Counted from the stretch's first letter, positions 1,368 to 46,252 are shown. The stretch: DNA of 64,000 nucleotides from Candidatus Babeliales bacterium (GCA_050179755.1 JBFXEV010000001.1:1385994-1449993); one strand, 5' to 3'. Numbers and translations are program-made. The notes: generated by a model from the letters alone, not told the origin.

Positions 1368-3083
1368 GTGAACTCTCCCCTTATTATTCCTCGGTATAAA
1401 CGCAATGCATTACAAGTTGGCGTGCTCTTATGCCTGTTTGGCATTATGGGGCGCCTTGTACATTTGCAACTTTATCATTATCAAACGCTCCTTGCAAAAA
1501 GCCGAAAAAACTTTCTGCGGCATGAAACTATCTGGCCTCAACGAGGTAACATTCTTGACTGTAATGGCAATTTGCTGGTCACCAATCGCCCTGCCACCGA
1601 TCTCTATTGGCAAGGTACCGGCAATCGCCCGCTCACGCATGAACAACTTGCTATTCTTGAAATAGTGCAAGAAATAGAAAATAAAACATTTGATGATGAA
1701 TTGCTGCAACTGGTCAAACGTGCAGAGCGCATGAGCACGCAACAACTTATTATTGATGATATAACGCTTGAACAATTATCAAAAATTGCAGAGCAATTTC
1801 CTGAGCACCCTAATATACTTATTCAAAATACATTTAAACGTCATTACCCCTACAATGATACTGCATGCCACGTCGTAGGATATATTAATCATTTGCAAGA
1901 TACTGGGCAAATGGGCATTGAGCGCGTATTTGATGATGCCTTGCGCGGGGAGCACGGTACGTTTGTTAAAACTATAAATTCAACTGGCCGACCTCTATCT
2001 GCCTACACGCTACACAATGCCATTCGTGGTGCCGATGTTACCACTACCATTAATATAGATATTCAGCACATGGCAGAAGCATTATTCCCGCCGGATGAAT
2101 CTGGCACGTTTATTGTAATGGATCCCAGCAATGGCGCTATTCTCACCCTTGTTTCTCGCCCCACGTTTGACCCTACCGTATTTATTGAAGGCCTTAATCA
2201 AGAAGAATGGCAGCAACTTTCTGAAAAAAAGCCATTTGTAAATCGAGCGCTTGGCGCGTGCTACCCGCCTGCCTCACTTTTTAAAATGGTGACTATTGCA
2301 GCAGCACTGGAAGAAGGCATTATCAGCACAGACACTGCGTGGTTATGCAAAGGCTATATACAATTTGGTAGAAAAACAAAATGTAACAAGCAACACGGCT
2401 GGCTTGATGTAAAAGAAGCTATTGCACATTCATGCAATATCCCATTTTATGAAATTGCCAAAAAATTGCATATTGATAAACTAGCGCACTATGCTCAAGC
2501 ATTTGGTCTTGGCCAGCCAACGGGCATTCTATTTCCTGAAAAGCAGGGTTTAGTGCCCACCACCAAATGGAAACGCGCACAACTTGGAGAGCGCTGGTGG
2601 CCGGGAGAAACTCTTTCTGCATCGATTGGTCAAAGTTATACTCTTGTCACACCACTGCAAATGGCCCGCATGATATCAAGCATTTGCACGCATAAGTTAG
2701 TGCGCCCTCGTTTGCTGCCACAAGAACCTGTTGAAATTAAACCACTCGGCATTAGCTCGGTTACCTGCAGATTCTTGCAAAAAGGCATGCGTGAGGTAGT
2801 TAAAGAAGGTAAAGCTAAAACGCTCAATACTATTGATGATCTTACGGTATATGCAAAAACGGGAACAGCACAAACATGTGCGCTTGATACTGGGCTTGAA
2901 GGCAAACAGTATTGCGCTCACGCGTGGCTTGGCGGTTACTTTACCTACAAAAATGAAAAACCACTCACCATCGTGATTATGATTGAATCAGCAGGTTCTT
3001 CTAGCGCTGCAACACGCGTTGCCAAACAATTTTTGGTCAAATATAGAAATTGGAAAAGGGAGCAAGAACGAGTGGTTGCGTAA
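1368..3083 (+). CDS. mrdA: Penicillin-binding protein 2 (transpeptidase)
   Basis: N-terminal TM, RGNILD dimerisation motif, SLFK (SxxK), SCN (SxN), KTGTAQ. Confidence 0.9.
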   Translation: MNSPLIIPRYKRNALQVGVLLCLFGIMGRLVHLQLYHYQTLLAKSRKNFLRHETIWPQRGNILDCNGNLLVTNRPATDLYWQGTGNRPLTHEQLAILEIVQEIENKTFDDELLQLVKRAERMSTQQLIIDDITLEQLSKIAEQFPEHPNILIQNTFKRHYPYNDTACHVVGYINHLQDTGQMGIERVFDDALRGEHGTFVKTINSTGRPLSAYTLHNAIRGADVTTTINIDIQHMAEALFPPDESGTFIVMDPSNGAILTLVSRPTFDPTVFIEGLNQEEWQQLSEKKPFVNRALGACYPPASLFKMVTIAAALEEGIISTDTAWLCKGYIQFGRKTKCNKQHGWLDVKEAIAHSCNIPFYEIAKKLHIDKLAHYAQAFGLGQPTGILFPEKQGLVPTTKWKRAQLGERWWPGETLSASIGQSYTLVTPLQMARMISSICTHKLVRPRLLPQEPVEIKPLGISSVTCRFLQKGMREVVKEGKAKTLNTIDDLTVYAKTGTAQTCALDTGLEGKQYCAHAWLGGYFTYKNEKPLTIVIMIESAGSSSAATRVAKQFLVKYRNWKREQERVVA

Positions 3084-5500: not shown

Positions 5501-8194
5501 TTATGCCTGGCCCCTTACGTATGGCTGTTCAGGTTCAGGGCGAGGCTCCATGCCAAGCAGCTCATAGACTTCTTGAGCAGACATGGTCTCTTTTTCCATC
5601 AGAGCAGCAGCAATTTTTTCAAGTTTATCCCGATGCTCGGCCAAGAGAGTCATTGCCCTCTTTAATGAGCCCTCTAAAATAGCCTGCACTTCCTCATCAA
5701 TTAATGAACGCGTGCGTTCTGAATAATCATGCGGATTTGCCCGAGGATTATAGATAACCGGCCCAAGCTTTTCAGACATGCCCCATTGGCATACCATTGC
5801 TCGCGCCATAGAAGTGGCCGACGTAAAATCACTTTCTGCTCCTGCACCCAACGTATTACAAGCCAAGTGCTCGGCAGCTCTGCCACCCATGCACATTGCA
5901 ATATAGGCAAGGCACATTTCTTTGCTGCGTGTATATTTTTCACGATCAGGCAAGTGAAACGTCACCCCTAACGCAGGCCCACGAGGAACAATAGTTACTT
6001 TATAAAGCGGGTCAATATGCTCATGAGGCATTAAGAGCCCTACCAACGCGTGCCCTGCCTCATGATAAGCGGTAAGCCATAATTCTTGTTTAGTTGGAAA
6101 TACACTTTTTGATTCTTGCCCAATAATAATCTTATCACGTGCTTCATCAAGATCTGCCATAGTCACTGCCGCTCGTTCTTCTTTTTTAGTGGCGATCATG
6201 GCAGCTTCATTAACGAGCCCTGCCAAATGAGCGCCAGTCCACCCTGCAGTACCGCGGGCAACTTTTGAAAGATCTGCATCTTCACCCATTTTGATTTTAG
6301 CAGCATGAATGTTTAAAATTTGCTCACGGCTTTTTAAATCTGGGTATGGCACGTGAATCGTTTTATCAAATCTACCAGGGCGCACGAGTGCCTTATCAAG
6401 CATATCCGCTCTGTTGGTTGCAGCAATAATAATTACATCGCTATCTTTTGTAGAAAATCCATCCATTTCTGTAAGCAACTGATTTAACGTTTGCTCTTGC
6501 TCTTGTGAGCCATACGGCCCATGCGAGCGAGCCCGGCCAATCGTATCAATTTCATCAATAAATACAATAGATGGCGCATGCTTGCGGGCTTGTGCAAAAA
6601 GATCACGCACGCGCGCTGCTCCCACACCCACAAACACTTCCACAAATTCAGAGCCACTCACTGCAAAGAATGGTCTTCCCGCCTCGCCAGCCACTGCTTT
6701 TGCAAGCAAGGTTTTACCATTTCCTGGCTCACCTTCTAGCAAGATTCCGCGGTTCATATGAGCGCCAAGACGTTTAAATTTTTGAGGCTCTTTCAAGAAA
6801 GAAACAAAATCTTGAAGTTCTTCTTTGGCTTCATGAGCGCCCGCCACATCGGCAAATTTAACTTTTACCATAGAAGGCATAATCATTTTTACATGACTCT
6901 TGGTCATGCCCGCAGCACTTTCACCGCCACCACCAGACTCTTCATTGCCTTTAGTGCTCGTTACTTGTTTGACTGCTTTATCAAAATCACCTTTGGTAAC
7001 AATATCGCGGCCCGATTCACGCGATGCAATGATAGCTGCTTGATTGACTAAGTTGGCCAAATCAGAGCCGGTAAAGCCTGCTGTATCTTTGGCAACTTGT
7101 GCAAGATCAATAGCTGAATCTAATTTTACTTTGCTTGCATGAAGACGCAAAATTGTTTCTCTATCTTTCTCTTCTGGATACGGCACAACTATGTGACGGT
7201 CAAAGCGGCCCCGGCGCACCAGCGCCTTATCAAGAACTTCTGGGCGATTGGTTGCTGCTATAATAATAATATTTTGTTGTTTGCTTGAAAAACCGTCCAT
7301 TTCTGCAAGAAGCTGATTGAGTGTTTGCTCACGCTCATCGTTTCCGCCACCAATACCGCCACCACGATGTCGGCCAATTGCATCAATTTCATCAATAAAA
7401 ATTATGCAAGGCGCATGTTTGCGTGCCTGCGCAAAAAGATCACGCACGCGCGCTGCACCCACACCCACAAATACTTCTATAAAATCTGAGCCGCTCACGC
7501 TAAAAAATGGGCAATTTGCCTCCCCTGCCACTGCTTTTGCAAGCAACGTTTTACCATTACCCGGGTCACCAACAAGCAATATGCCGCTCGTCATTTGCGC
7601 GCCTAAACGGCGATATTTTTCTGGATTTCTTAAAAAATCTACAAAGTCCTTCAGGGCTTCTTTGGCAGTATCTGCTCCCGCAACATCTGCAAACGTGGTT
7701 TTAATAGTAGAAGGCATAAACATACGAGCGCGGTTTTTACCCATGCCAAAAATATTAGCACCACCGCCGCCGCCATTCTGGCCTTTCATCTGACGGAAAA
7801 AATACCATGCTGCAAGTAATGATAACAAAAACGCGCCAAATAAAAAGAAATGCCAGGTTTGAAAGCCCGAAGGCTCTACAATATGCACGTACACATCATG
7901 CGCAATGAGCTGGTCCATAATCGTTGAATTTTCAGGGATATTAGTCTCAAACTTTTGAGTGCCTTGCTTATAAACCCCATGAATACTCTTACCCGAAACT
8001 GTAACCGCCTTTACCTTATCCTGGTTAACTGCACTGACAAATTCTGAATATGAGATAACAGTAGTGTTAAGAATAATATGGCCAAGCTGCGATAATATAA
8101 TAAGAGATCCCACGAGCAGCACTACCATAACCACCAGATTGCGAGGACCGCCATTAAAGCCTTTAGGGTTCAAATTGGAAAACTTCTTTTTCAT
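5501..8194 (-). CDS. ftsH: ATP-dependent zinc metalloprotease FtsH with two tandem AAA+ domains
   Basis: 2 TM, two Walker A ([16 protein letters not shown]), two FVG pore loops, two DEID Walker B, two SRH, HEAGH M41 protease. Confidence 0.95.
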
Positions 8195-8395: not shown

Positions 8396-8911
8396 CTAAG
8401 CTGTCACCTTAGAATTCGCCTGCGACTTTTCAACTATATCCAAAAACCAAATATCATGTGCTTCTTCAGCAAAAGTGTTCTCATAGTTTTTAAGAAAAGC
8501 ATAAAACGCTTGCGTTTTCTCTTTTGAAGGAGAAGGCGTATCAATTTCTGGATTATGATGCATAAAATGACCAGCATATGTAGTACCAAATTGAGCATAT
8601 TCTTTGGTAAATAATATGAATGAATGCCAAAGATTATCTACATCACGGCTATACATACCAATGTTCTCTTTGTTTTTATTAAGTGCACAAAGTATAAGAT
8701 AGCGCTTGAGTTCTCGTTCTAAAATAACAATATCTTCATCACTATAACCAAAATCTTTTTGGCATCGTTTGGTCATATGCTCCATGGGATAATTCATTAT
8801 GCCAGTTATTATCTGCTCTTTACTTGGTTTGGAAAGGTAAGCCTTTAAGTACGTAAAGCACATTACGAGCAAAGTTGAAAATACAATAAGCGTCAAATTT
8901 TTTATATTCAT
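8396..8911 (-). CDS. GRDP/DUF1399-like (glycine-rich-domain family) protein with N-terminal membrane anchor
   Basis: ELKRYLIL…SRDVDNLWHSFILFTKEYAQF…GHFMHHNP…YENTF…IW matches the family pattern as I recall it. Confidence 0.7.
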   Translation of the reverse strand: MNIKNLTLIVFSTLLVMCFTYLKAYLSKPSKEQIITGIMNYPMEHMTKRCQKDFGYSDEDIVILERELKRYLILCALNKNKENIGMYSRDVDNLWHSFILFTKEYAQFGTTYAGHFMHHNPEIDTPSPSKEKTQAFYAFLKNYENTFAEEAHDIWFLDIVEKSQANSKVTA

Positions 8912-8933
8912 GTTAATTTGTATCTTTACATAG

Positions 8934-8964
8934 CAAAAGAGCTGCAGATAATACTACAGCTCTT
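8934..8964 (-). terminator. Hairpin/terminator between the peptide gene and the GRDP-like gene
   Basis: Minus strand AAGAGCTGTAG-tattat-CTGCAGCTCTT then TT. Confidence 0.6.
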
Positions 8965-8995
8965 AGTAAATTAATTCGTTGTAAAAGGCAAAAGT

Positions 8996-9214
8996 TTAAT
9001 CTCCGCCACCGCAACCATTACAACCTTCAAGATCACAAACAGGCACAACATTAATAGGATGGCTACCAGAAACATCAGATGCATGATCAGCTTTAATATT
9101 CTGTTTTATGTTTGCTATAGCAGAATTTGCTTGCGCAATTCTGTTTTTTACAGAACATTCCACTTGTGTAGCAATTGCACAAATTATGAGAGCAGCAAAA
9201 AATTTATTGTTCAT
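8996..9214 (-). CDS. Small secreted peptide with C-terminal Cys/Gly motif (candidate RiPP-like precursor)
   Basis: AAGGGAA RBS, signal peptide MNNKFFAALIICAIATQVEC, ends VCDLEGCNGCGGGD. Confidence 0.7.
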   Translation of the reverse strand: MNNKFFAALIICAIATQVECSVKNRIAQANSAIANIKQNIKADHASDVSGSHPINVVPVCDLEGCNGCGGGD

Positions 9215-9484
9215 GTGTGGTTTCCCTTTAGTTGATTGTTAATGTCCCTTACATAATTACTATAGCACATATATTACTTAAGTAACTATATTCAACATCT
9301 CATTCAACGTTAATTAACATCTTATTAATAAACTTACCTAGCGCCCTAGGGCCTTATAATATTAATAATGATTATAATTTCAACAGGATTAAATAGTAAC
9401 AAATTGAAATATTTTGTATTTTCAATTATGATATCATTAACATTTATTAACACTTCTAAAGGAATCTCAAAGATTGGAGCAAAG

Positions 9485-9919
9485 TTGAGCAAACATAATC
9501 AAAATAACAAAGCACTCTTACATTTTAGAGAGCCACTTATTCTCTCAAACCTTATTCTGGCAATGAAAGAATCGTTGCCAGAACTAGAAGCCGCTTTTAA
9601 CGAATATCAAGATGATTTACTGCAAACTGGCGAATATGATCAAGGTTATTTTTCCTATATTTTTAATCCATATTTACAGGAGTTTTTACAATCCAAACAA
9701 AAACACCCTAACCAACTGGGTAAGCGAATATTCCATTATTTAGAAAGAATGGCACGCAGCCCTGAGTGGACGGTAGTTAATGTTTTGGCTGTGGTGATAC
9801 TTGAGCATCTTAGTCCTCACCAATTGGAAGTTGCACGCCAGTATATGGGGCCAAAGACCAAGGAAATTCTAAAAGATATACAACAATATTGGAGAGATCT
9901 TCATGCAGCGCAAAAGTAA
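9485..9919 (+). CDS. Small helical protein, immunity-like (DUF7674-like); paralog of 16748-17161
   Basis: GGAG before TTG at 9485 (ORF open from 9368); LGKRIF.YLE.M…ILEHL…ARQYMGPKTKEIL shared with paralog. Confidence 0.65.
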   Translation: MSKHNQNNKALLHFREPLILSNLILAMKESLPELEAAFNEYQDDLLQTGEYDQGYFSYIFNPYLQEFLQSKQKHPNQLGKRIFHYLERMARSPEWTVVNVLAVVILEHLSPHQLEVARQYMGPKTKEILKDIQQYWRDLHAAQK

Positions 9920-10451
9920 AAAAGAACTGATAGTGCATAGTAACCAAGCAAGAAAGTTATCACTTCTATTATTGCCCTTTTTTGGCTGGCTCGCGTTTGA
10001 TATATTTTCCTATATTTCTGATTGGTCAGTGCTTAACGCTCTTGCCGGCGCGCGTTATATTAAATGGGTGCTTACGTTCGCATTGCTAATATTTCTAGTA
10101 CGTTTGACCGTCATTTTTTGTAGGCTTTTTTGGCGTTATGTAACGAGGGCTCCTGCTGTTGTTCTTAACGATGAAGGTTTATGTCTGGAAAATTTTGGTC
10201 TTATTCCTTGGGAGAACGTGGAGCATCTTGAAAAATGGATTAGTAATCCTTTAAATATACCGGGTGAAGAACTTGTGGGCCTTGCAATCAGCTTTAAGAA
10301 TCCTGAGTTGGTGTTTAATAAAGGTTGGTTACATCAAAAAATAATATATATGTTAAAAACGCATAATTCTTTATATCATGTGCTCGTGCAACATCTTGAT
10401 CGTGATCCTCAGGAAGTTGCCCAGTTTGCCAAGCATTTTATACAAAAGTAA
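9903..10451 (+). CDS. Membrane protein, STM3941/PH-like family
   Basis: Two TM segments then PAVVLNDEGL…GLIPWENV motif. Confidence 0.65.
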   Translation: MQRKSKKELIVHSNQARKLSLLLLPFFGWLAFDIFSYISDWSVLNALAGARYIKWVLTFALLIFLVRLTVIFCRLFWRYVTRAPAVVLNDEGLCLENFGLIPWENVEHLEKWISNPLNIPGEELVGLAISFKNPELVFNKGWLHQKIIYMLKTHNSLYHVLVQHLDRDPQEVAQFAKHFIQK

Positions 10452-10459
10452 ACATAATC

Positions 10460-11047
10460 ATGAAAACCTTGTTACCATTACACAAAGCTTCTAAGCAAAA
10501 TAAAATTGAAAAAGTAAAAGCTTTGCTTGAGCAAGGAGCTGATGTACATGCAAAGGATGTGCATGGAAGAACCGCGCTCCATATTGCAGCTCTTGATGGG
10601 CACCTTGAGGTAGTGAAGCTGTTACTTGCACATGGAGCTACCGTATCAACAAAAGATACTGCTGATAAATTTACGGCGTTAGAACTTGGAGCATGTTATG
10701 GCCATACGCCCGTTGTTATTGCGCTCATTAATCATGGTGCGGATGTGAATACTCTAAGCAAAGATCGCGTGAGTGCGTTACATTTGGCATGTGGCCAAGG
10801 GCATCATGATACAGTTAAAGTATTGTTATCTCATGGTGCTAACATACAAGCAAAAAATAGTCTGGGCAGTACGCCGCTCCATTATGCAGCAGTTACCGGT
10901 CACCTAGCAGTAGTTGAGTTGTTACTTGCGCAGGGGGCTGATGTGCATGCAAAAGGGATGTATGGCGAGACTGCAAAAAATATGGCATTACAAGCTGGTT
11001 ATACAGAAATTGCACATATACTTGAACAGTATGCAACCAATACGTAA
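10460..11047 (+). CDS. Ankyrin repeat protein
   Basis: Consensus G.TALH.AA..GH.EVVKLLL.HGA repeats, no signal peptide. Confidence 0.93.
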   Translation: MKTLLPLHKASKQNKIEKVKALLEQGADVHAKDVHGRTALHIAALDGHLEVVKLLLAHGATVSTKDTADKFTALELGACYGHTPVVIALINHGADVNTLSKDRVSALHLACGQGHHDTVKVLLSHGANIQAKNSLGSTPLHYAAVTGHLAVVELLLAQGADVHAKGMYGETAKNMALQAGYTEIAHILEQYATNT

Positions 11048-11170
11048 TGGATTTAAGTCCCCTTTGGCCAAGGACCAATTTTGTAAACAAGGGGTAATAA
11101 TGGTATGCTTTATGTTAATAGTAGTGGCTATATTATATCTATAAAATTTTACTAATAGTAAATAAACGAC

Positions 11171-11650
11171 GTGAATCAAGTGCAACAAACTTTTGCTGAA
11201 ATAAGCAAAAATCTAATTGGGCAAAAAGTCAGCGCTATTAAATTAGGCGTTGGCAGTTTTTTAACTCTTGATTTTGGCCAGTTGCATACAAAACTTACAA
11301 AAACCAAAACAGGAAAAGAACTGATTCATACGTTTGGGGAATGGCATCTGTGGGTATATATGTGTGCTTGGCGAATTGATAAAAATGGAAAGCCATATAT
11401 TGCTTCATCTGATGATCGCACAAAAATTGCTCAAATAATAAAAGAACTTTTTGACACTGTTCTTACAAAATGGGAATTGTTAAATCCTTCATTGGATACT
11501 AAATGGTATTTTGATGATCATATAACGCTCACGTTATTTAATACCAGCACTGAAGATGAAGATCAATGGTTGTTATTTACGCCTGAAGACATGGTATTAA
11601 CCATTGGTCCCGGTGATACGTGGACGTACCAGCCTTCTGGTGCCAATTAA
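11171..11650 (+). CDS. Hypothetical protein, immunity-like beta-rich family
   Basis: 159-aa ORF; GSFLTLDFG…GEWHLWVYMCAWRI…SSDD motif. Confidence 0.65.
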   Translation: MNQVQQTFAEISKNLIGQKVSAIKLGVGSFLTLDFGQLHTKLTKTKTGKELIHTFGEWHLWVYMCAWRIDKNGKPYIASSDDRTKIAQIIKELFDTVLTKWELLNPSLDTKWYFDDHITLTLFNTSTEDEDQWLLFTPEDMVLTIGPGDTWTYQPSGAN

Positions 11651-11675
11651 ATTTACTTACATTGCAGGAATATGA

Positions 11676-12437
11676 ATGCAAACTTTTTCAAAAGAATCAT
11701 TAGTAGATGCTGTACTGCATAATGATGTATCACGAGCAACAGCTCTGCTTGCACAAGGCATTGATGTAAATGATAAAAATGTGCATGGCTGGACGGCGTT
11801 ACATCTTGCTGCACAATGTGGGCAAAAAGAGCTTGTGGAATTGTTGCTCAGCCATGGTGCTCAAATTCAAAATAAAGGTACTTGTGATATTACGCCACTC
11901 CATTTGGCGTCACTTACCGGGCAATCTGAAGTTGTTATGGTGTTGCTAGCGCATGATGCGTGGGTGGATGCTCAAGATCAAATTGGTAGAACACCGCTCC
12001 ATATGGCAGCACAGGGTGGAAATGTTGATGTTGTTGCATTTTTGCTTGCACGTGATGCAAACATGTACCTTAAAGAAAATATGCAAGGCCATACTCCTTT
12101 AAAAGTCGCACAAGCTCATGGCAATCAAGCGGTAGTCGATTTGTTTCTTGAACAGCAAGCATTCCAAATAAATGATGCTGCTTATGAAGATAACAAAGAA
12201 CAGGTCGCTTATTTGCTATCACAAGGTGTTTCTATTAACGCAAAAACTGATGATGCAAGGCCGTTGCTGCGTGCTGCATTTGAAGGTCACAAGGAAATGG
12301 TAGAATTGCTGCTTGCACATGGGGCTGATGTTCAAATAACAGATCAAGATGGTAATACAGCTGCCATGCTTGCGCAAGAAGAAGGCCATACAGAAATTGT
12401 GCAGTTACTTGAGCAGCACGGAAAAAATAAAATTTAA
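11676..12437 (+). CDS. Ankyrin repeat protein (two fused capped units)
   Basis: Ankyrin consensus repeats; internal C-cap/N-cap junction near aa 160. Confidence 0.93.
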   Translation: MQTFSKESLVDAVLHNDVSRATALLAQGIDVNDKNVHGWTALHLAAQCGQKELVELLLSHGAQIQNKGTCDITPLHLASLTGQSEVVMVLLAHDAWVDAQDQIGRTPLHMAAQGGNVDVVAFLLARDANMYLKENMQGHTPLKVAQAHGNQAVVDLFLEQQAFQINDAAYEDNKEQVAYLLSQGVSINAKTDDARPLLRAAFEGHKEMVELLLAHGADVQITDQDGNTAAMLAQEEGHTEIVQLLEQHGKNKI

Positions 12438-12451
12438 TTTAGGGGCGATAA

Positions 12452-13429
12452 ATGCAAAATTTTTCTATTGAAGCATGGATTGATGCAGTATCAAAGAATA
12501 ATATTCCACAAGTAAAAACATTGCTTGCACAAGGTATTGACCTTAATAGTAAAGATACCCATGGTACGGCATTACATTATGCAGCCAATTATGATTATCA
12601 AGAACTGGTTGAATTATTAATTGCGAGTGGCGCTGATATACATGCAAAAAATAAACAAAACTGGACTCCATTACATACTGCCTCGCAATATGGATCTCTA
12701 AAAAGTGCCCACATATTAATAGCACATGGTGCAGATGTACATGCAAAAGATTTAGATAATTATAGTCCATTACATTATGCAGCCGCGGAAAATTTTGGAA
12801 ACATAGCTGAATTATTAATAATGAGTGGTGCTGTAGTGGACGCAAGGACTGAATATAATTGGACTGCATTACACCTTGCAATTCAGAATGGCTTAGAAAA
12901 AATTGTAGCATTATTAATAGCGAGCGGCGCTCAAGTGAATGATGTTATAGATAAGCAGACGCCATTACAGAAGGCTTCTCTTTATGGTTATGAAAAAATA
13001 GTGCAACTATTACTAGAGCATGGTGCTGACGTGAATGCAAAAAATGATGATGGCTGGACTGTGTTAATGCTGGCTTGCCTCTCCGGGCATAAAAAAGTTG
13101 TAGAATTACTCATAGCTTTTGCTGCAGATGTTAATGCCAAAAGTATAGACAATTGGACTGCATTACATGTTGTTTCACAAAATGGACACGGAGCGGTAGC
13201 TGAATTGCTTATAGCTGGTGCTGCAGATGTTAATATAGTCAGTGGTGCTGGCACTGCTTTGCACTTGGCAGCATTTGAAGGATACAAAGAAATAGTCGCA
13301 TTACTGCTCTCACATGGGGCTGATATAACACTACTCGATAGAGATAACAAGACAGCTGCCATGATTGCGCAAGAAGAAGGCCATACAGAAATTCTGAAAC
13401 TATTAAATCAGTATGTAAAGAACGACTAG
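12452..13429 (+). CDS. Ankyrin repeat protein
   Basis: About nine consensus repeats, AGGGG RBS. Confidence 0.93.
   Translation: MQNFSIEAWIDAVSKNNIPQVKTLLAQGIDLNSKDTHGTALHYAANYDYQELVELLIASGADIHAKNKQNWTPLHTASQYGSLKSAHILIAHGADVHAKDLDNYSPLHYAAAENFGNIAELLIMSGAVVDARTEYNWTALHLAIQNGLEKIVALLIASGAQVNDVIDKQTPLQKASLYGYEKIVQLLLEHGADVNAKNDDGWTVLMLACLSGHKKVVELLIAFAADVNAKSIDNWTALHVVSQNGHGAVAELLIAGAADVNIVSGAGTALHLAAFEGYKEIVALLLSHGADITLLDRDNKTAAMIAQEEGHTEILKLLNQYVKND
13226..13393 (+). repeat. Near-identical direct repeat (last ankyrin repeat plus C-cap), copy 1
   Basis: Matches 14687-14854 (offset 1461), including most synonymous sites. Confidence 0.85.
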
Positions 13430-13437
13430 GACTATCT

Positions 13438-14127
13438 ATGAAAAGTTCATCAACATTTGAGCTACATAAAGCAATTGAACAAAATAATATCTCACTCGTT
13501 CAATCATTACTTGCTGAGGGAGCAGATCTTAATGCCAAAAATATAGAAGGTATGACAGCCTTTGAACTTGCAGCAAGTTGTGGGCACATCGAAATTATTC
13601 TTTTATTAATCAAAAGTGGCGCTGCTGTACATGCAACAAATAACTCTCATTCAACACCTCTACATGATGCATCTGCTAGTGGCCAAAAAAAGATTGTTCA
13701 AGTACTAATTGACCATGGTGCACATGTAAACGCAAAAGCAGATAAGAATATTACTCCTCTACATATGGCCACATTGAATGGCCATCAAGAAGTAGTTGCA
13801 TTATTGTTGGCACATAACGCTGATATGGAGGTGCAGGAAAGTGTAAAAGATCTTACCGCTTTAGAACTTGCATCTGCGCGAGGTCACCGTGAAATTGTTG
13901 CCTTACTTCTCATGCATGGTGCCAAGGTGAATGCAAAGTCTAAAGGAAGAACAGCATTGCAGTTTGCAGCAGCCTATGGCCACATAGAAGTCGTAGAGAT
14001 GTTACTAACCAGTGGAGCAGATACCACCATTAAAGACGAAACTGATCTTACTGCCGATATGATTGCGCTGAGGGAAGGTTACGTAGAAATTGCACATTTG
14101 ATTGTGCAATATGAAAATACAAAATAA
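13438..14127 (+). CDS. Ankyrin repeat protein
   Basis: Consensus repeats with N- and C-caps. Confidence 0.93.
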   Translation: MKSSSTFELHKAIEQNNISLVQSLLAEGADLNAKNIEGMTAFELAASCGHIEIILLLIKSGAAVHATNNSHSTPLHDASASGQKKIVQVLIDHGAHVNAKADKNITPLHMATLNGHQEVVALLLAHNADMEVQESVKDLTALELASARGHREIVALLLMHGAKVNAKSKGRTALQFAAAYGHIEVVEMLLTSGADTTIKDETDLTADMIALREGYVEIAHLIVQYENTK

Positions 14128-14197
14128 GCTTTGAGATTTGGCAAAGCAACTTCAATACTAAAAAAAATTGGTAGCGTTATAAACAGTAAGGCCAAGT

Positions 14198-14875
14198 GTG
14201 CAAAAATTCCCCAAACTAGTATTGCATAAAGCAGCATCAAAAAATGATATCGCCCAAGTAAAAACGCTCTTGGCGCATGGTGCTCATGTTAATGCAAAAG
14301 ATACAAAGAATAGGACCGCTTTGCATCATGCAGCAGAACGTGGTTATTTAGAGATAGTTACTTTGTTGCTTGCACAGGGAGCAGATGTTAATGCCAAAGA
14401 CGCTATAGATGGTGGTTTTACGCCATTACAATGTGCAGCTTGGCGTGGTCACACGGAAGTTGTTAAATTACTGCTAAAGCATGGTGCTGATGTACATGCA
14501 AAAACCGCCGGTGGATGGACTTCTTTATCTTTTGCAGCACAGGCTGGTCATAAGGAAGTCATTGCAGCATTATTGGCACATGGAGCACAGATGAATGCAA
14601 AAGATGGCCTTGATTGGACAGCGTTACAAATGGCAGCATCCCATGGGCATACAGATGTGGTTGAATTACTGCTGGTGCATGGTGCTGATGTGAATATAGC
14701 CAGTGATGCTGGCACTGCTTTGCACCTTGCAGCATTTGAAGGATACAAAGAAATAGTCCAGTTACTGCTCTCACATGGTGCTGATATAACACTACTCGAT
14801 AGAGATAGCAAGACAGCAGCTATGATTGCGCAAGCAGAAGGCCATCAAGAAATTGTAGAGCTTTTTAAGATATAG
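14198..14875 (+). CDS. Ankyrin repeat protein
   Basis: Consensus repeats; GTG start; C-cap ends abruptly in the overlap with the convergent gene. Confidence 0.92.
   Translation: MQKFPKLVLHKAASKNDIAQVKTLLAHGAHVNAKDTKNRTALHHAAERGYLEIVTLLLAQGADVNAKDAIDGGFTPLQCAAWRGHTEVVKLLLKHGADVHAKTAGGWTSLSFAAQAGHKEVIAALLAHGAQMNAKDGLDWTALQMAASHGHTDVVELLLVHGADVNIASDAGTALHLAAFEGYKEIVQLLLSHGADITLLDRDSKTAAMIAQAEGHQEIVELFKI
14687..14854 (+). repeat. Near-identical direct repeat, copy 2
   Basis: Matches 13226-13393. Confidence 0.85.
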
Positions 14876-16113
14876 TTTGCTACCGCAGGACCTGTAAATT
14901 CTACTTCTTTTAATTTCGGCACATAATCTTTGCCAAGTGGTACGGTTTCTTGAAAATAATGTCTTTCAGGCGGCGTAAAATTCCATAATTTGTTAAATAC
15001 GTTTCCGTGCGTATCGCGAGCCATAACTATATATCGTTCAAATTCACTTGATAGGTCACGATAAATCACAATTAATTTGCCTGCTTCTATGAGTGAATAG
15101 GCATAGCCGCTTTTTAAAGGAGGTGGTGGATATACTTTGTACACAATGTGACAACCAGTATCTTTAATATTCGTAGATACTCCAGCAGCAAGCAATAGTT
15201 TAACAATATCCTGCCGGTTGTTATGGCAAGCATAATGTAAAACAGTGCCTTCATAGCCATAGTTAGGATCAATAGCAAAAACGGTGCTACAGTAATGAGG
15301 ATTGTTTACAAATTCAATAATATGCTTGATCGCGTTATATGAATGTTCTTGATAAATCAGCAAGCCAACAATGCGGCATAAATCAGCAAGTGCTGCTCCT
15401 TTGGCCATAAAAAGATCAACAAGTTCTATCGAGGGAACTGCATATGCACAAAAAAGGTAAAAATCTTCAGGTGTTGCTTCTATATTGCATTCACCAAGCA
15501 AAAATACTAAGACTTCATTAGGCGCCCGAGCTGCAAGCGGTATTGATAAATTAAAATTGTCAGTGGTAGCTCCTGCCATAATCAATAACTCGCCGTTGGC
15601 GACACTGTTTTTAAATGTGGTTTTTACTTCATGGTCCATAGAATAATCTGCATACCCAAAACAATAAGCAAATGATGTTTTAATAGACTTTGGACCATTT
15701 GGATCTGCCCCATATTTGAGCAAGAGTTCCGTATATGCAGCAGGTTTATCATTGATACTCAGAACAGTGAGCGTAGTATGCTCATCACGATGAGTTGGAA
15801 AATACGCATCATTGGGATTTGCGCCTCTTTCAAGAAGCAGTTCGAGCACTTTGATATCAGTTGTATATTCACAAGCCCATAATAGTGGAGTTCTATCACT
15901 TTCATCCTTGCGAGCTCTTACATCAGCGCCATGATCAAGTAATAAACGGATAATCTCAATAGATGAATCTAGCTTGCAAGCATAAGAAAGCGGTGTACAA
16001 TGCGTGGCATAAAAATTAAGATCAATACCATTTTTGATAAGCTCACTTAAGCTTTGCTCATTGAGCTCTTTATCTTTAATTAATGTATAGAGGGTAATTA
16101 AAGGATTGATCAT
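14845..16113 (-). CDS. Divergent ankyrin repeat protein with unrecognised C-terminal domain
   Basis: TPLSYAC…LLLDHGADV, TPLLWAC…LLERGANPN, TVLHYAC…LLLAAG. Confidence 0.85.
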   Translation of the reverse strand: MINPLITLYTLIKDKELNEQSLSELIKNGIDLNFYATHCTPLSYACKLDSSIEIIRLLLDHGADVRARKDESDRTPLLWACEYTTDIKVLELLLERGANPNDAYFPTHRDEHTTLTVLSINDKPAAYTELLLKYGADPNGPKSIKTSFAYCFGYADYSMDHEVKTTFKNSVANGELLIMAGATTDNFNLSIPLAARAPNEVLVFLLGECNIEATPEDFYLFCAYAVPSIELVDLFMAKGAALADLCRIVGLLIYQEHSYNAIKHIIEFVNNPHYCSTVFAIDPNYGYEGTVLHYACHNNRQDIVKLLLAAGVSTNIKDTGCHIVYKVYPPPPLKSGYAYSLIEAGKLIVIYRDLSSEFERYIVMARDTHGNVFNKLWNFTPPERHYFQETVPLGKDYVPKLKEVEFTGPAVANYILKSSTIS

Positions 16114-16325
16114 GCAAAGGAACCTTGCAAATTTTCTATGCTATCTTTTACAAATAAAACTAGATCAATCTTATCAAAATAAGATTTTTATACAATCTGT
16201 AACGAAAGGCCAAGTACGAGCCTGCATGTTGCTTGAGCAAACAGTTAAATAAGATATAATAGTATAATATATCTAGTTTCTATAAAAAATTCATAATAGA
16301 AATTATATAACTAAACGGTACTCTT

Positions 16326-16739
16326 GTGAATATTAGCCACTATACTTCTTACTTTCATGATGGATCAATTATTGCGATTCAGCATAAAAATACTGAACTT
16401 TTAATTTCAATGGAGAGTGCTGAACTATCACGTGATGATCTGACTGAAGATATCACCCTTTCAGAGCATAGCTCGCTAAAAGGTATTTTACATCTTAAGA
16501 GAATAAAGAGTATATACGTTGACGAGCAGGCTTTTATAGGAAAATTGGTTACGCATGCTACAAAAAGCAGCCGCATATTAGATTTTTCTATTAAAGGCAC
16601 AAAAGTGCATTTTTTTATCGAGTGGAGCACAATACCAGTAAATCCATTACTTGATGAGTTCAATGATATTGTTGTTGAAGCAGACGAGATTTATTGGGAA
16701 AACAAACCTGATCTGTATGACCATTTTGGTAAAGGATAA
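16326..16739 (+). CDS. Hypothetical protein with N-terminal FHDG motif (Imm50-like, tentative)
   Basis: 137-aa ORF, YFHDGSIIAI start, beta-rich; heads the second ankyrin cluster. Confidence 0.6.
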   Translation: MNISHYTSYFHDGSIIAIQHKNTELLISMESAELSRDDLTEDITLSEHSSLKGILHLKRIKSIYVDEQAFIGKLVTHATKSSRILDFSIKGTKVHFFIEWSTIPVNPLLDEFNDIVVEADEIYWENKPDLYDHFGKG

Positions 16740-16747
16740 CCTCAACC

Positions 16748-17161
16748 ATGGTATTGAGTGCGCAAGAGCAACTTACTGTAACTAACCTCATTCCTGTTAT
16801 GAAAAAATTATTCCCGGAATTAGAACCACGATTTGCTGAGCGTCAACAGGATCTTGAGGGTGTATCTGCTGGTCTTCATTTTATATATGTATTTTGTCCG
16901 TTTTTAAGAACATTTCTGGATTCAGAGCAACCACACCCAAATCTACTTGGCAAGCGATTATTTGCATATCTTGAAAGTATGTCACAAAGTTCTGATATTA
17001 GAGTGTCAGAAATACTTGCATATCACATTTTAGAAAGTCTCAGTCACAAGCAGTTGGAAATTGCCAAAATATACATGGGCTCCAAGACTAAAGAAATACT
17101 CAAGGAAGTGGAAGAGTTTTGGGAAAAAGTAGGAAAATGGCAAACCACAAGGAAATGTTAA
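16748..17161 (+). CDS. Small helical immunity-like protein (DUF7674-like); paralog of 9485-9919
   Basis: HPNLLGKRLFAYLESM…ILESLSHKQLEIAKIYMGSKTKEIL. Confidence 0.7.
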   Translation: MVLSAQEQLTVTNLIPVMKKLFPELEPRFAERQQDLEGVSAGLHFIYVFCPFLRTFLDSEQPHPNLLGKRLFAYLESMSQSSDIRVSEILAYHILESLSHKQLEIAKIYMGSKTKEILKEVEEFWEKVGKWQTTRKC

Positions 17162-18159
17162 TGGAACACACAAAAAAGCACGTATGGTTTAATGCCATAC
17201 TTGAAAATAACTTGCCAGAAGTAGAAATGCTTATTGAGCAAGGAATTGACGTAAATACGCAAAATAGCGATGGTCAAACTGCATTGCACTTGGCAGCTCA
17301 ACAGGCTCATGATGAATTAGTGTATGTGCTCATAATTTCTAAAATGAATGTGCATATAAAAGACAATCGTGGTAATAATGCACTGCATGTGGCAGCGCTG
17401 AATGGGCACCAAGTAATAATGCAATCTCTTATTGATTATGGTGTAGATGCTGAGTTGGTCAAACATATGGATATTGCGCTTGATCTTCTTGCACTCAATA
17501 ACAACGGCAAAACAGCGCGCATGCTTGCTTTAGAGCATGGTCACACCGAGATTGCCCAAATTTTACAGCAAGAAGAATGGGGCACTGCAATTGCAAAAAA
17601 TGATATTGAACAAGTAAAAATGCTACTTCAAGAAGTAATCAGTGAGGACATGAAAGATTTTGGTTTACGTGTGGCAGTAAGATGGAAACATATTGAAATT
17701 ATCAAACTGTTTCTTGTGAGTGGTTTTGATACAAATATAAAAAACCATTTTGGGGAAACTGCTTTTTATGAAGTGATAACTAGTGGGAATACAACTCTCA
17801 TTGAATTATTTCTTAATCATGGCGCAGATGTGCATGTTAAGACTACGCAAGGTGAAACTGTCTTGCATTGCGCAGTCAGATGCGGGCATAAGGAAATTGC
17901 AGAGCTTTTAATCGAGCACGGCGTTGATATGCACATACCAACGCGAAGGGAAGAAACGTTACTACATATTGCTTGTAAATATGGGCACATTGGTATTGTT
18001 GAATGGCTACTGCACTGCAATATAAATGTGAATGCCCGCAACAGATCCAATGAAACTGCTTTAGATTGCGTTTTAGACCGTTTTTCTAATGAAGAACATT
18101 TTGATAAGATAGCAGATCTTTTGAGAGCCCATGGCGCGCAGGAACAAAAAGGTCTTTAA
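17161..18159 (+). CDS. Ankyrin repeat protein (two fused units)
   Basis: Ankyrin repeats; TAATG stop/start overlap with the upstream gene. Confidence 0.92.
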   Translation: MEHTKKHVWFNAILENNLPEVEMLIEQGIDVNTQNSDGQTALHLAAQQAHDELVYVLIISKMNVHIKDNRGNNALHVAALNGHQVIMQSLIDYGVDAELVKHMDIALDLLALNNNGKTARMLALEHGHTEIAQILQQEEWGTAIAKNDIEQVKMLLQEVISEDMKDFGLRVAVRWKHIEIIKLFLVSGFDTNIKNHFGETAFYEVITSGNTTLIELFLNHGADVHVKTTQGETVLHCAVRCGHKEIAELLIEHGVDMHIPTRREETLLHIACKYGHIGIVEWLLHCNINVNARNRSNETALDCVLDRFSNEEHFDKIADLLRAHGAQEQKGL

Positions 18160-19325
18160 TGCAAGATTTATACACAGAATTGTTTGATGCATTAGAAGAC
18201 AATAATCTTATTGTTATCAATGAATTACTCTTGCAAGGAGTTGATGCCAATGCTAAAACCAACCATGGTAGTGCCTTGCACATGGCCGCACGCTGGGGTT
18301 CTCAAGAAACTATAAAATTGCTCTTAGAGTATGGTGCTAATGTGCATGCGCAAGACTTTATGCAACGCACCGCTTTGCATTGGGCGGCATGCAAGGGAAC
18401 AATAGAAATAATTAAATTACTTCTTGCAGCAGGTGCTGATATTCATGCCCAAGACTATGAGGGCAAAACTGCCTTGCACATGGTAACTAATAAAAATTCT
18501 CTTGATCTATTACTCTCTTATGGAGCTGATATTAAAGCACAAGATGACTATGGCAACACTCCTTTGCACGCAATAGCTTCTGGTGAAAATGCGGAACGAA
18601 CAGATGCTCCTAATCTTGTAAAAGTAGTGGCAACATTGCTTGAGCGAGGTGCCGATCCTCATGCAGTAAACAATGCTTATTCAACTCCTTTGTTCGATGC
18701 TATAAGCAGTGCTGATTCAGAAAATTGGATCAACCCTCAAGAAGATGATCCAAACATTGCCATTATCAAATTATTGCTCGCTGCCAATGCAAATGTAAAT
18801 GTACAAGAAAAGCACAATGGTTGGGCCCCATTACATTTTATAGCCTATCGCAATCATGCACGAATGATACCGTTACTGCTTGCGCACGGTGCAGATATTA
18901 ATATTAAAAATAATACAGGTGAGACTCCATTGCATATGGCAGTGGCGCAAAGTAATTTAAAAATAGTCAAACTGCTCTTAGAAGCTGGAGCTCAGGTGAA
19001 TGTAAAAGATTGCAACCTGATAACACCACTTCACATTGCAGTTAGTTTTGATTCCTTTGAAAGGTCAAAAGAAGAAGTTCGATGGACTGCGTCAAAAAAT
19101 GAACGTCAATATACTTTACATCCGCTTCCCTATGAACATGAGAATTATAAATCTTGTTTTGAAATGCATTATGGGCTCAAAGAAGTAGTTACATTATTAT
19201 TAGAATACGGCGCCGATCGCGCAGCACAAAATAAAGATGGCAAAACGCCACATATGATCGCGCTTGAAAAAGGGCATAGTGAAATTGCTCAGATGCTTGA
19301 AGAATATGAGAAAAAGCTTCAATAG
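18159..19325 (+). CDS. Ankyrin repeat protein with loop insertions
   Basis: Ankyrin repeats; TAATG overlap. Confidence 0.93.
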   Translation: MQDLYTELFDALEDNNLIVINELLLQGVDANAKTNHGSALHMAARWGSQETIKLLLEYGANVHAQDFMQRTALHWAACKGTIEIIKLLLAAGADIHAQDYEGKTALHMVTNKNSLDLLLSYGADIKAQDDYGNTPLHAIASGENAERTDAPNLVKVVATLLERGADPHAVNNAYSTPLFDAISSADSENWINPQEDDPNIAIIKLLLAANANVNVQEKHNGWAPLHFIAYRNHARMIPLLLAHGADINIKNNTGETPLHMAVAQSNLKIVKLLLEAGAQVNVKDCNLITPLHIAVSFDSFERSKEEVRWTASKNERQYTLHPLPYEHENYKSCFEMHYGLKEVVTLLLEYGADRAAQNKDGKTPHMIALEKGHSEIAQMLEEYEKKLQ

Positions 19326-19346
19326 CAAGCGATAGTGCTTTTTAAT

Positions 19347-20684
19347 ATGCAAAAAAATAACGATGAAAAGTTGATAGATGCAATTCATGCAAATGATGTC
19401 GCTGCAGTAAAAAAAATCATTGATCAAGGCTTTGCTGTAGACACAGTCTATCTTTATAACGAGACAGCTTTACACATAGCAGCATATTGGGGTTATACAG
19501 AGATCGTTGAATTATTACTGAAGCATAAAGCTGATCCAAATATACAAGCGAGTATCGATAATTGTGGTATTGTGCCTTTGCATTATGCAGTATGTAGAGG
19601 TTTTACCAAAATAGTAGCGTTATTACTAGCACATGGTGCTAACGTGCATATTCAAAACAGAAATGAAAATACGGCACTTCACTATGCTTGTGACCATGGT
19701 TATCTAGAAATTGTTCAATTATTAGTAACGCATGGCGCACATATAAATGCAAAAGGTTTGCATGGACAAACTCCTTTGCATGAAGCTTTGCCTAAACATA
19801 CAGAAATCGTTCAATTATTACTGGATAATAAAGCCGATGTTCAAAGAAAAGATGACTTTGGTCGAATTGCGTTGCATTGTGCAAGATGGATAGAAAATAA
19901 AGGAATACTTCAGCAGCTTATAGATCGTGGCGCTGATATTCATGCTCAAGATGATTATGGAAAGAATGTGCTTCATTATGCTGCTGCAGGCCACAGTCAG
20001 GAAATGATATTATTTTTAATATCCTTAGGTGCCAATATTCATGCAACAACTAAGGACGGCTCTACCCCTTTACATACGGCAACGAATGATGTTGGAATAT
20101 GCAAAATATTACTTGAGCATGGTGCAGATGTGCATGCGCAAGATGAATCTCAAGAAACGCCATTGTTTAAGGCAACATGTTTTTATCCCAACAATGAAGT
20201 TATTGAATTATTGCTTCAAAATGGTGCCTGCACAAATATCAAAAATGCTGAAGGAATAACGCTTCTAGATAAAGCATTTTCTCTTTACTATGAATCGCTT
20301 ATAGAACTAGAAGAAGACCTTGAATCAGATCTTCTCAGAATGATTGAATTATTGCTCATATATGGTGCTGATCCAAATGTGCAAAATAGCTATGGTAATA
20401 CAATTTTGCATCGAGCGTCTATGAATTTTGCAGGTGAAAAGATAGTACAATTATTATTACAGCATCACGCAAATCCAAACATACTAAATAATGACACTAA
20501 TACAGCGCTTCATTTGGCATCAGCAAACGGAAATAAAGAAGCGGTTGCAATGCTTATTGCATATGGGGCTGATAATAAAATAATGGATGCAGAAGGTAAA
20601 ACGGCTTGTATGTTAGCATTGCAGCAAGAGCACATAGAAATTGTTCAAATGCTAGAAGAGTACGAAAAACGTACGTTGGCATAA
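19347..20684 (+). CDS. Ankyrin repeat protein
   Basis: About twelve ankyrin repeats with caps. Confidence 0.93.
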   Translation: MQKNNDEKLIDAIHANDVAAVKKIIDQGFAVDTVYLYNETALHIAAYWGYTEIVELLLKHKADPNIQASIDNCGIVPLHYAVCRGFTKIVALLLAHGANVHIQNRNENTALHYACDHGYLEIVQLLVTHGAHINAKGLHGQTPLHEALPKHTEIVQLLLDNKADVQRKDDFGRIALHCARWIENKGILQQLIDRGADIHAQDDYGKNVLHYAAAGHSQEMILFLISLGANIHATTKDGSTPLHTATNDVGICKILLEHGADVHAQDESQETPLFKATCFYPNNEVIELLLQNGACTNIKNAEGITLLDKAFSLYYESLIELEEDLESDLLRMIELLLIYGADPNVQNSYGNTILHRASMNFAGEKIVQLLLQHHANPNILNNDTNTALHLASANGNKEAVAMLIAYGADNKIMDAEGKTACMLALQQEHIEIVQMLEEYEKRTLA

Positions 20685-20738
20685 TGCATGCGATGTAAGA
20701 ATAGAATTAAAGAATACATTTAACTGAAAGACTTTTTT

Positions 20739-22241: not shown

Positions 22242-22273
22242 TCACATGGACTCATAATGAATGATATACGCCC

Positions 22274-22396
22274 ATGAAAAGATATTTTATATATAAAGAC
22301 AATAACTCTGATAAGTTTTGGGTCATAGATATTATTGAGAATAAAACCCAAGTTGCTTATGGTAAAACGGGTACTCCTGGCGTGAGATGCACTTAA
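22274..22396 (+). pseudogene. Truncated second WGR domain
   Basis: Manual translation MKRYFIYKDNNSDKFWVIDIIENKTQVAYGKTGTPGVRCT*; lacks the C-terminal helix. Confidence 0.7.
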
Positions 22397-22495
22397 CAGG
22401 AGCAATTTTTAATTTCTAAGCTATAATTAGATACTAGCATTTGTGTTATTGTTCAAATATTTTTAAATCATTTTTTTCTCATTAAGGTTTTTTAT

Positions 22496-42045: not shown

Positions 42046-42062
42046 GAGGTACCTAACAAAAC

Positions 42063-42146
42063 GGGAAGCTTATACAAAACAGTGACTACTCCTGCTGCTT
42101 CCTTTCGGACCTGACAGATTAAGCAATATGTTTTTATGAGCTTCCC
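42063..42146 (-). ncRNA. ffs: SRP RNA (4.5S, small form)
   Basis: Minus strand TCAGGTCCGAAAGGAAGCAGCA core within a GGGAAGCT…AGCTTCCC stem, directly upstream of dnaX. Confidence 0.92.
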
Positions 42147-42186
42147 TTATTTTTAATTCTAGAAAGTATATATAGTATACTGCAAT

Positions 42187-43418: not shown

Positions 43419-43510
43419 TGGTGGAGAGAGAGGGATTCGAACCCTCGATACCTTTTTCAAAGTATACACGATTTCCAATCGTGCTCCTTCAACCACTCGG
43501 ACATCTCTCC
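43419..43510 (-). tRNA. tRNA-Ser(GGA)
   Basis: GGAGAGATGTCCGAGTGGTTGAAGGAGCACGATTGGAAATCGTG, long variable arm, GGTTCGAATCC, encoded CCA. Confidence 0.97.
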
Positions 43511-46151: not shown

Positions 46152-46252
46152 GTTATCCCCTGCATTGAACACCTATGGTCATTTTTACAAAGCCATAGGT
46201 AATTTACTACTAACAACTATTTTTGGCCTAGTCTCTGACTTATCAAGAGTCA

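Follow-up and report, generated by a model that had tools for sequence, protein, structure and literature searches.

A predicted secreted Cys-rich peptide and an anchored PF27765 domain protein encoded as a gene pair in Candidatus Babeliales

The closest described counterparts of the locus reported here, which occupies positions 8,396 to 9,214 of a 64,000-nucleotide stretch from a Candidatus Babeliales bacterium (GCA_050179755.1 JBFXEV010000001.1:1385994-1449993; the whole stretch is hereafter called the window), are domain proteins that carry a Cys-bearing tail, together with the bufferins. In plant GRDP2, according to PMC4299439, the domain is accompanied by a Gly-rich C-terminal stretch in which Cys residues are interspersed, consensus [CG]GGGCGG[GC]. 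PMC12452194 describes TIGR04222 membrane proteins, the Ser/Gly-rich, Cys-bearing C-terminal tails of which are predicted to face the periplasm, as proposed MNIO substrates, and bufferins as small Cys-bearing precursors with Sec signals, encoded in compact gene sets, which are modified by MNIO and DUF2063 proteins and chelate copper. The starting point of a preliminary description of the window, namely that DUF1399 and TIGR04222 proteins carry Cys/Gly tails in cis, accordingly holds in print. In the window, an open reading frame (ORF) encoding a 72-aa Cys-rich peptide is followed on the same strand by a hairpin and by the gene of a 171-aa protein of family PF27765, which itself has no Cys after its domain. 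The module of domain plus tail is known, and what is new is the split, exported gene pair; no publication on a split Cys-peptide/PF27765 arrangement in Dependentiae or Babeliales was found in a search outside which the supplements of PMC12452194, which may list kin precursors, lay. The features of the pair are as follows.

8996..9214, minus strand: gene for the secreted Cys-rich peptide, 72 aa (ORF, peptide alignment, profile match)
9155-9214, minus strand: predicted signal of the peptide, residues 1-20 (sequence reading)
9092-9154, minus strand: conserved amphipathic helix of the peptide, residues ~21-41 (peptide alignment)
Residues 42-59, minus strand: linker of the peptide
8999-9037, minus strand: Cys segment of the peptide, C60-x4-C65-x2-C68-GGGD
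8934..8964, minus strand: terminator-like stem-loop with a short U-run in the spacer between peptide and domain genes (folding against shuffles)
8396..8911, minus strand: gene for the 171-aa domain protein, containing VDNLWHSF and FMHHNP (ORF)
8834-8905, minus strand: N-terminal membrane anchor, residues 3-26 (modelled helix)
8432-8824, minus strand: all-helical PF27765 (UCP032817-like) domain, residues ~30-160 (alignment and model)
8624..8638, minus strand: codons D92-N-L-W95-H96, first half of a near-invariant polar site
8549..8560, minus strand: codons H118-H119-N-P121, second half of the near-invariant site
9285..9313, minus strand: promoter-like hexamer pair upstream of the peptide gene (consensus match only)

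Conservation of the peptide and domain gene pair

The locus comparison shows that the predicted peptide and domain genes constitute a conserved two-gene unit in amoeba-associated Babeliales. A single genome_contigs scan, with one genome per species, yielded 30 loci, the 12 closest of which (L001-L010, L012 and L013) are of Babeliales/Dependentiae type. In none of these 12 is the domain followed by a tail of several Cys within one polypeptide. In seven of them (L001, L002, L003, L004, L006, L007 and L009) one or two peptide ORFs lie directly upstream on the same strand, each with a signal-peptide-like start, the conserved helix and a Cys-rich end, and in L008 a single reading frame joins the peptide to the N-terminal side of the domain, where it replaces the anchor. 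The domain ORFs of L012 and L013 cover profile positions 17-123 and 31-121 only, being cut after HHxP, and adjacent small signal-bearing ORFs at these two loci match positions 127-174, 130-177 and 130-171 (E 9e-7, 2e-6 and 1e-3), thus comprising the last helix of the domain and then a Cys-rich end; two such ORFs are located downstream in L012 and one is located upstream in L013. L005 and L010 have no peptide ORF, while the other 10 of these 12 loci have it adjacent or fused. Several peptide genes are present in L002, where an additional copy lies downstream of the domain gene, and in L006, L009 and L012. Consecutive locus tags were also noted for a peptide (P0235) and a domain homologue (P0041) in a Babeliales assembly. 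The remaining 18 loci include 15 with at least two Cys past the domain on the same protein, the exceptions being L025, L027 and L030. The linkage of tail-less homologues with Cys-rich peptides, which the preliminary description had put forward for examination, is therefore evident from seven loci with upstream peptide genes and one N-terminal fusion. About 0.9 kb upstream of the L002 domain gene, a third small ORF (2892-3047, plus strand) codes for a product that has a signal peptide and is basic and Cys-rich at its end; this ORF was unmatched by the peptide profile.

The 72-aa product ends in VPVCDLEGCNGCGGGD (ORF listing of the window), and its N-terminus resembles a Sec signal, in that, as read by eye, it has K4, then a hydrophobic stretch and, as residue 20, a small one, while the conserved mature portion begins at S21 in an alignment of 12 peptides (that of the window and 11 from other genomes). 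A lipoprotein reading of this signal was rejected because the residues preceding Cys (E, D, Q) do not match a lipobox. When a profile was built from the 11 non-window peptides and applied to 567 ORFs of the window, the 72-aa ORF was matched at E 7.6e-16 and the second-best ORF at 0.14. The full peptide profile, applied to 1991 ORFs of the 30 loci, recovered its 11 source ORFs, each of which is domain-adjacent or domain-fused, with just one additional and weak match (E 0.0063). A collection of 5.8 billion proteins holds 15 members of the family at E<=0.001 (795 candidates), none of which bears a Pfam label or an informative name. On the strength of these profile searches the peptide family is genuine, though small. 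The helix is conserved among the 12 aligned peptides and 14 further database members and the Cys end differs between them both in length and in sequence, which is the pattern of conserved leader and variable core that characterizes peptides made by the ribosome and modified after translation (RiPPs). Successive Cys residues of the peptides are most often spaced as CxxC (17/34 gaps) or CxxxC (9/34), and the tails of the family are mostly basic (K 13.5%, R 9%), whereas that of the window peptide is acidic. An Atlas fold search with the peptide, for which the model was poor, gave no usable match, and neither the peptide nor the domain protein was matched under E 0.05 in PADLOC or PHROGs.

The 84-nt spacer between the two genes has a folding energy of -19.5 kcal/mol, corresponding to z -3.2 and z -3.8 in two runs, in the latter of which 0/200 shuffles folded as well. 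The hairpin (~8938-8963, minus strand) consists of a 10-bp stem and a 6-nt loop and is followed by UUUUGCUAU. It was not flagged by a simple terminator scan, which we ascribe to the short U-run failing the rule of that scan, and an Rfam scan of the window had no match at this position. A strong stem-loop was observed in the spacer of all eight loci with the peptide gene upstream, the window included (z -3.7 to -6.6, 0/200 shuffles each), and in several of these it is followed by a U-run. The two ORFs and the hairpin given in the preliminary description were recovered with their coordinates and quoted sequences, and the order of precursor, hairpin and domain gene that it had compared to RiPP operons recurs throughout these eight loci. 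The hairpin may act as an attenuator that keeps the peptide above the domain protein. Promoter-like sites numbered 10 in the region as compared to 6.4 +/- 2.7 in shuffles, which is weak evidence for the hexamer pair.

The preliminary description had also supposed that tail and domain were here split into two genes. The counterpart of the tail does reside on a gene of its own, but simple gene fission was rejected for the window pair, because the peptide gene precedes the domain gene and encodes a helix other than the one with which the domain ends; at E<=0.01, the domain profile matched no stand-alone peptide ORF lying upstream. A small ORF that is both homologous to the C-terminal part of the domain and located downstream, as fission would leave it, was found only in L012, the ORF of L013 being homologous but located upstream.

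Fold, family and tailed relatives of the domain protein

The public collection and the Atlas carry the domain protein of the window only as a 126-aa form starting at M46. The 171-aa start was preferred because conservation among relatives extends upstream of M46; a confident modelled helix does likewise, and the gene as deposited probably lacks the part that encodes the anchor and first helix. The AlphaFold2 model, computed from a 149-row alignment, is all-helical with a predicted local distance difference test (pLDDT) score of 94.3, a predicted template modelling score (pTM) of 0.86 and an N-terminal helix at residues 3-26. This modelled helix and the Sec-like start of the peptide are in agreement with the export or anchor signals that had been claimed for both products. 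A PDB fold search returned 0 matches at E<=0.001, the best template modelling (TM) score being 0.23, and a PDB sequence profile search returned two chance-level matches only (E 0.027 and 6.5).

The nearest relatives of the 171-aa protein are encoded by Candidatus Babeliales/Dependentiae assemblies. At E<=0.01, 82 relatives were obtained from 96 candidates of similar length; all 82 relatives, including the window's own protein (P0001), bear a precomputed PF27765 label, and assignment to this family rests on that label and on the Atlas name UCP032817-like (Pfam 38.1). Cluster representatives matched by the window protein numbered 2929 at E<=0.001, 266 at E<=1e-10 and 12 at E<=1e-30. The comparison with PF07173 and TIGR04222 hidden Markov models (HMMs) that had been proposed as a check turned out negative: the window protein was unmatched by either at E<=1, as were 22 close relatives by PF07173 and 19 locus proteins by TIGR04222 at the same threshold, and 36 distant relatives were unmatched by both at E<=0.1. 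The window model nevertheless aligns with an Atlas cluster that has PF27765 in 96% and PF07173 in 65% of its members (TM 0.68) and with a plant PF07173 Atlas cluster (TM 0.67), these being comparisons of predicted models. In BFVD it matched a Harvfovirus "Glycine-rich domain-containing protein-like" entry (E 1.8e-5, TM 0.60/0.73, root-mean-square deviation 2.6 over 127 columns), with weaker matches to entries from Gaeavirus, Terrestrivirus and Orpheovirus. The earlier designation as a GRDP/DUF1399-like domain is therefore right at the level of the fold and wrong as Pfam membership, since the folds align and the HMMs do not match. Judged by label and predicted model, the 171-aa protein is a PF27765 member that is kin to GRDP-like proteins only by fold.

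A set of polar residues is near-invariant among the 149 aligned family members. W95 is present in 149/149, D92, H96 and Y105 in 148/149 each, H118, H119 and P121 in 147/149 each, E67 in 146/149, T102 in 145/149 and F108 in 144/149.

The 149 cluster representatives matched by the window protein also served as the sample for a survey of tails. The full domain is followed by at least two Cys in 81/149, and 8 more are Cys-tailed with an alignment that ends early; 41/149 have the full domain without such a tail, 18 end a few residues past HHxP and 1 was unclassified. The first Cys is located a median of 12 residues past the conserved Trp155 (interquartile range 9-14; 76 aligned tails), and the tails, with a median of 4 Cys, are low-complexity and acidic (C 18%, G 15%, S 10.5%, D 10%). 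CxxC (91/285) and CxxxC (71/285) are frequent among their Cys gaps, a spacing like that of the stand-alone peptides. This comparison shows the predicted peptide to be the separate-gene counterpart of the Cys tail that its relatives carry on the same protein. Most PF27765 relatives have no N-terminal hydrophobic segment, and the N-termini of L011, L012, L013 and L015 resemble cleavable signal peptides. L011 (225-2517, plus strand), from an uncultured Pseudomonadota assembly, encodes four tandem exported copies of the domain, two of which have neither the DxxWH/HHxP residues nor a Cys tail, while the two with the motif have the tail. The architecture classes are grouped on the domain-core tree (22 changes versus a mean of 58.7 in shuffles), and the same-protein tail is missing in 45/55 anchored as compared to 28/94 unanchored rows (Fisher p 5e-10). 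Co-evolution of anchor and tail loss is not claimed, because the phylogenetically independent test, with 3 pairs on supported branches, is without power.

Two groups of relatives carry tails of another kind. In the Entotheonella relatives (L014 141-791 and L023 3980-4666, plus strand) the tail is made of repeated ECRG units rather than of Gly/Ser/Cys low-complexity sequence, and in Solirubrobacterales and Rubrobacter relatives (L022 3944-4480 and L024 600-1100, plus strand) it is a conserved, non-low-complexity segment with four Cys (SCDQCG..C..TC). Proteins with tails of the L022/L024 type look like the best candidates for first biochemistry. L022 adjoins genes for an ArsR-family protein and a MIP channel.

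Possible activities of the pair

As to the role of the unit, we favour, at a rough probability of 40%, a maturase-like action in which a metal-dependent domain acts on peptide thiols outside the cytoplasm. The unit would be the exported two-gene form of the module of GRDP-like/UCP032817-like domain and Cys-rich tail. The 72-aa product would be exported via Sec, and signal cleavage would leave a peptide of ~52 aa, the helix of which would serve as recognition element and the variable C-terminal CxnCxxC segment as working end. The 171-aa product would be anchored by its N-terminus with the helical domain facing outside the cytoplasm, and its Glu67/Asp92/His96/His118/His119 set would hold a metal ion. 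The Cys segment would be the client of the domain, most likely as substrate for a metal-dependent thiol change in the manner of RiPP maturases, and owing to the hairpin more peptide than domain protein would be made. We infer this topology, the metal binding and any catalysis from sequence. Three features put maturase-like action first, namely the conservation of the helix, the multiple peptide genes at a locus and the hairpin. Co-folding of domain residues 28-171 with peptide residues 23-72, from their own alignments and without controls, gave a score of 0.02 (mark 0.32) and speaks neither for nor against binding. The predicted fold of a natural fusion (P0085) has the peptide part as one long helix continuing from the signal peptide, with a pTM of 0.70 and a pLDDT of 53-63 for linker and Cys segment, and is uninformative on docking.

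A number of points weigh against this maturase-like action. Beside the pair, no conserved protease, exporter or second enzyme was found among 140 neighbour ORFs of the 30 loci and 53 ORFs of the window. In the literature, no function was found for PF27765/UCP032817, DUF1399 is represented by plant phenotypes only and a chemistry of the superfamily is not described. That E67, D92, H96, H118 and H119 form one site is assumed from their conservation, and C109, present in 132/149 family members, is replaced by Gly in the window protein. Topology and signal cleavage were read from sequence by eye, and RiPP modification outside the cytoplasm is unusual. Finally, the tail is mostly fused 1:1 to the domain, which fits a metal or redox partnership equally well or better, and Gly/Ser/Asp-rich low-complexity tails resemble the metal-binding tails of metallochaperones.

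The last two of these points lead to the reading ranked second, on account of its fit to 1:1 fusions and low-complexity tails, in which metal is buffered or handed over without covalent change: the Cys segment would chelate Zn, Cu or Fe, and the His/Asp/Glu site would dock it or transfer the metal. In Babeliales this would amount to envelope metal homeostasis with a bufferin-like role. We consider it a real possibility, if on balance an unlikely one. The predominance of CxxC and CxxxC, the median of 4 Cys and the hypervariable, Gly/Ser/Asp-rich tails accord with such a role, as do the self-contained nature of the module, which has no conserved partner enzyme, and the fact that a 1:1 fusion is its commonest architecture. 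Precedents are also available in Zn-binding tetracysteine peptides, the cysimiditides (bioRxiv 10.1101/2024.10.02.616296), and in Sec-exported Cys peptides that protect against copper (PMC12452194). The recognition helix, the multiple peptide genes and the hairpin suggest, in contrast, that client is in excess and its partner works like a catalyst; there are only 3 Cys in the window tail, and no conserved metal transporter or regulator was found nearby, the ArsR and MIP genes being present at 1/30 loci.

An improbable alternative is a redox relay, in which the Cys segment, as a dithiol/disulfide or metal-thiolate shuttle, would exchange electrons with a metal centre of the domain. Parallels are offered by rubrerythrin, with its rubredoxin-like C-terminus, and by Erv-type thiol oxidases, with their flexible Cys arms, and the fairly fixed distance to the first Cys (median 12, interquartile range 9-14), the frequency of CxxC pairs and the presence of a DsbD-type reductant importer in the window (36149-37921) are in keeping with it. 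VKOR and DsbA-like genes adjoin L005 and L021, which is to say that redox genes are neighbours at just 2/30 loci; moreover, the PDB yielded neither rubrerythrin nor Erv nor another solved fold as a structural match (E<=0.001, best TM 0.23), and the tails are much more variable than known redox domains.

More improbable again is a role of the peptide as secreted Cys-rich effector or antimicrobial, with the membrane protein as its immunity protein or export helper. In bacteriocin-immunity pairs the peptide gene is followed by a small membrane-protein gene, which is the layout seen here, most of the peptides are short, basic and Cys-rich with Sec signals (K 13.5% and R 9% of tails), and the hosts are protist parasites or symbionts with many ankyrin-repeat proteins encoded nearby. 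The PF27765 family is, however, mostly cytoplasmic with the tail fused to the domain, which would be senseless if the two were toxin and immunity protein, the tail of the window peptide is acidic rather than basic, and an immunity protein would have no need of an invariant His/Asp/Glu site. That the adjacency is functionally meaningless, or that the 72-aa ORF is no gene, is close to refuted by the profile match (E 7.6e-16 versus 0.14 for the next-best ORF), by adjacency or fusion at 10/12 of the closest loci and by the natural in-frame fusion of L008, even with a co-fold (score 0.02, mark 0.32, without controls) that returned no verdict on binding.

To return to the maturase-like action, its broadest form would be a new, minimal peptide-maturation system with this pair as its first example, in which a ~130-aa helical His/Asp/Glu metal domain alters Cys-rich peptides extracytoplasmically and in which the relatives with same-protein tails are self-modifying enzyme-substrate fusions. 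We regard this extension as rather doubtful. If true, it would make enzyme-substrate fusions of hundreds of tail-bearing relatives in bacteria, archaea, giant viruses and, as GRDP/DUF1399 proteins, plants, and the superfamily would gain its first biochemical function.

The superfamily is large (2929 representatives), extending from archaea to plants and giant viruses, and is without a known biochemical activity. Since most of its members have domain and tail on one polypeptide, agent and target are difficult to distinguish in them. The Babeliales pair separates the two naturally, with a peptide that has its own putative recognition helix, and does so in three independent layouts, namely peptide upstream, N-terminal fusion and domain split at the last helix; the function of the domain therefore becomes approachable by a simple two-plasmid experiment. 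Should the domain be an enzyme, this would represent a new class of peptide modification, and should it be a metal partner, a new system by which obligate intracellular bacteria handle metal in the envelope.

Gene surroundings and comparison with described systems

Among the products of the window, the G+C content of which is 39%, are numerous ankyrin-repeat proteins as well as an ATP/ADP translocase and a tandem-AAA FtsH. The last of these is an 897-aa FtsH-like protease (5501-8194, minus strand) with two tandem AAA modules ahead of the M41 peptidase. On the other side of the pair are some twelve successive ankyrin-repeat genes (9368-23977, plus strand), among which genes for two DUF7674 proteins are interleaved (9368-9919 and 16748-17161) and one of which (20739-22241) specifies a protein ending in a WGR domain. 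Further along are an IS605 OrfB/TnpB-like gene (34908-36041, minus strand), a gene for a DsbD-type membrane thiol-disulfide reductant transporter (36149-37921, plus strand), which would feed reducing power to the predicted compartment of the Cys peptide, and a gene for a TLC-type ATP/ADP transporter (44733-46172, minus strand) of the kind typical of energy parasites. The only RNA genes detected in the window with Rfam are those for the signal recognition particle RNA (42057-42149, minus strand) and tRNA-Ser(GGA) (43419-43510, minus strand). A class I methyltransferase was considered as conserved partner of the domain gene and rejected, as its occurrence next to L001, L016 (two genes) and L026 and as a fusion in P0180 is too sparse. 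In L016 (1-1917, plus strand), a Patescibacteria contig, a fusion of domain and tail is placed between two small S-adenosylmethionine (SAM) methyltransferase genes and is preceded by the 3' end of another family member.

Operons for lantibiotic-type RiPPs comprise a precursor gene, sometimes in multiple copies, a stem-loop and a processing gene, with a conserved leader and a variable core in the precursor. The layout of the window pair matches theirs; the partner encoded here is a 130-aa helical domain that belongs to no known enzyme class, and neither a recognised modifying enzyme nor a leader protease or exporter, as RiPP systems have, was present among the 140 neighbour ORFs of the 30 loci and the 53 window ORFs, in which no MNIO, DUF2063, radical SAM or YcaO genes were seen either.

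The tailed PF27765 proteins of bacteria and archaea share with the window pair the family itself, the near-invariant residues and the spacing of Cys; they differ in that their tail is on the same protein, while in the window a separate secreted peptide with a helix of its own accompanies an anchored domain. Plant GRDP1 and GRDP2 (PF07173, DUF1399) are alike in fold and in the pairing of a domain with a Cys/Gly stretch. Unlike the window protein, which has no PF07173 match, they are multi-domain, intracellular proteins of 787 aa known from growth and stress phenotypes only, and the Gly/Cys-rich region that PF07173 proteins have on the same polypeptide corresponds here to the Cys/Gly end of the neighbouring 72-aa ORF. 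TIGR04222 proteins have several transmembrane segments, whereas the window protein has one modelled N-terminal helix and no match to their HMM, and they are proposed substrates of MNIO, a gene for which is absent from the 53 window and 140 neighbour ORFs. Bufferins resemble the window pair as small Cys-bearing precursors with Sec signals in compact gene sets. They belong to other precursor families and are modified before export by MNIO (DUF692-type) and DUF2063 proteins, genes for which do not lie next to the precursor in the window or among the neighbour ORFs, whereas both partners of the pair described here appear to be exported separately.

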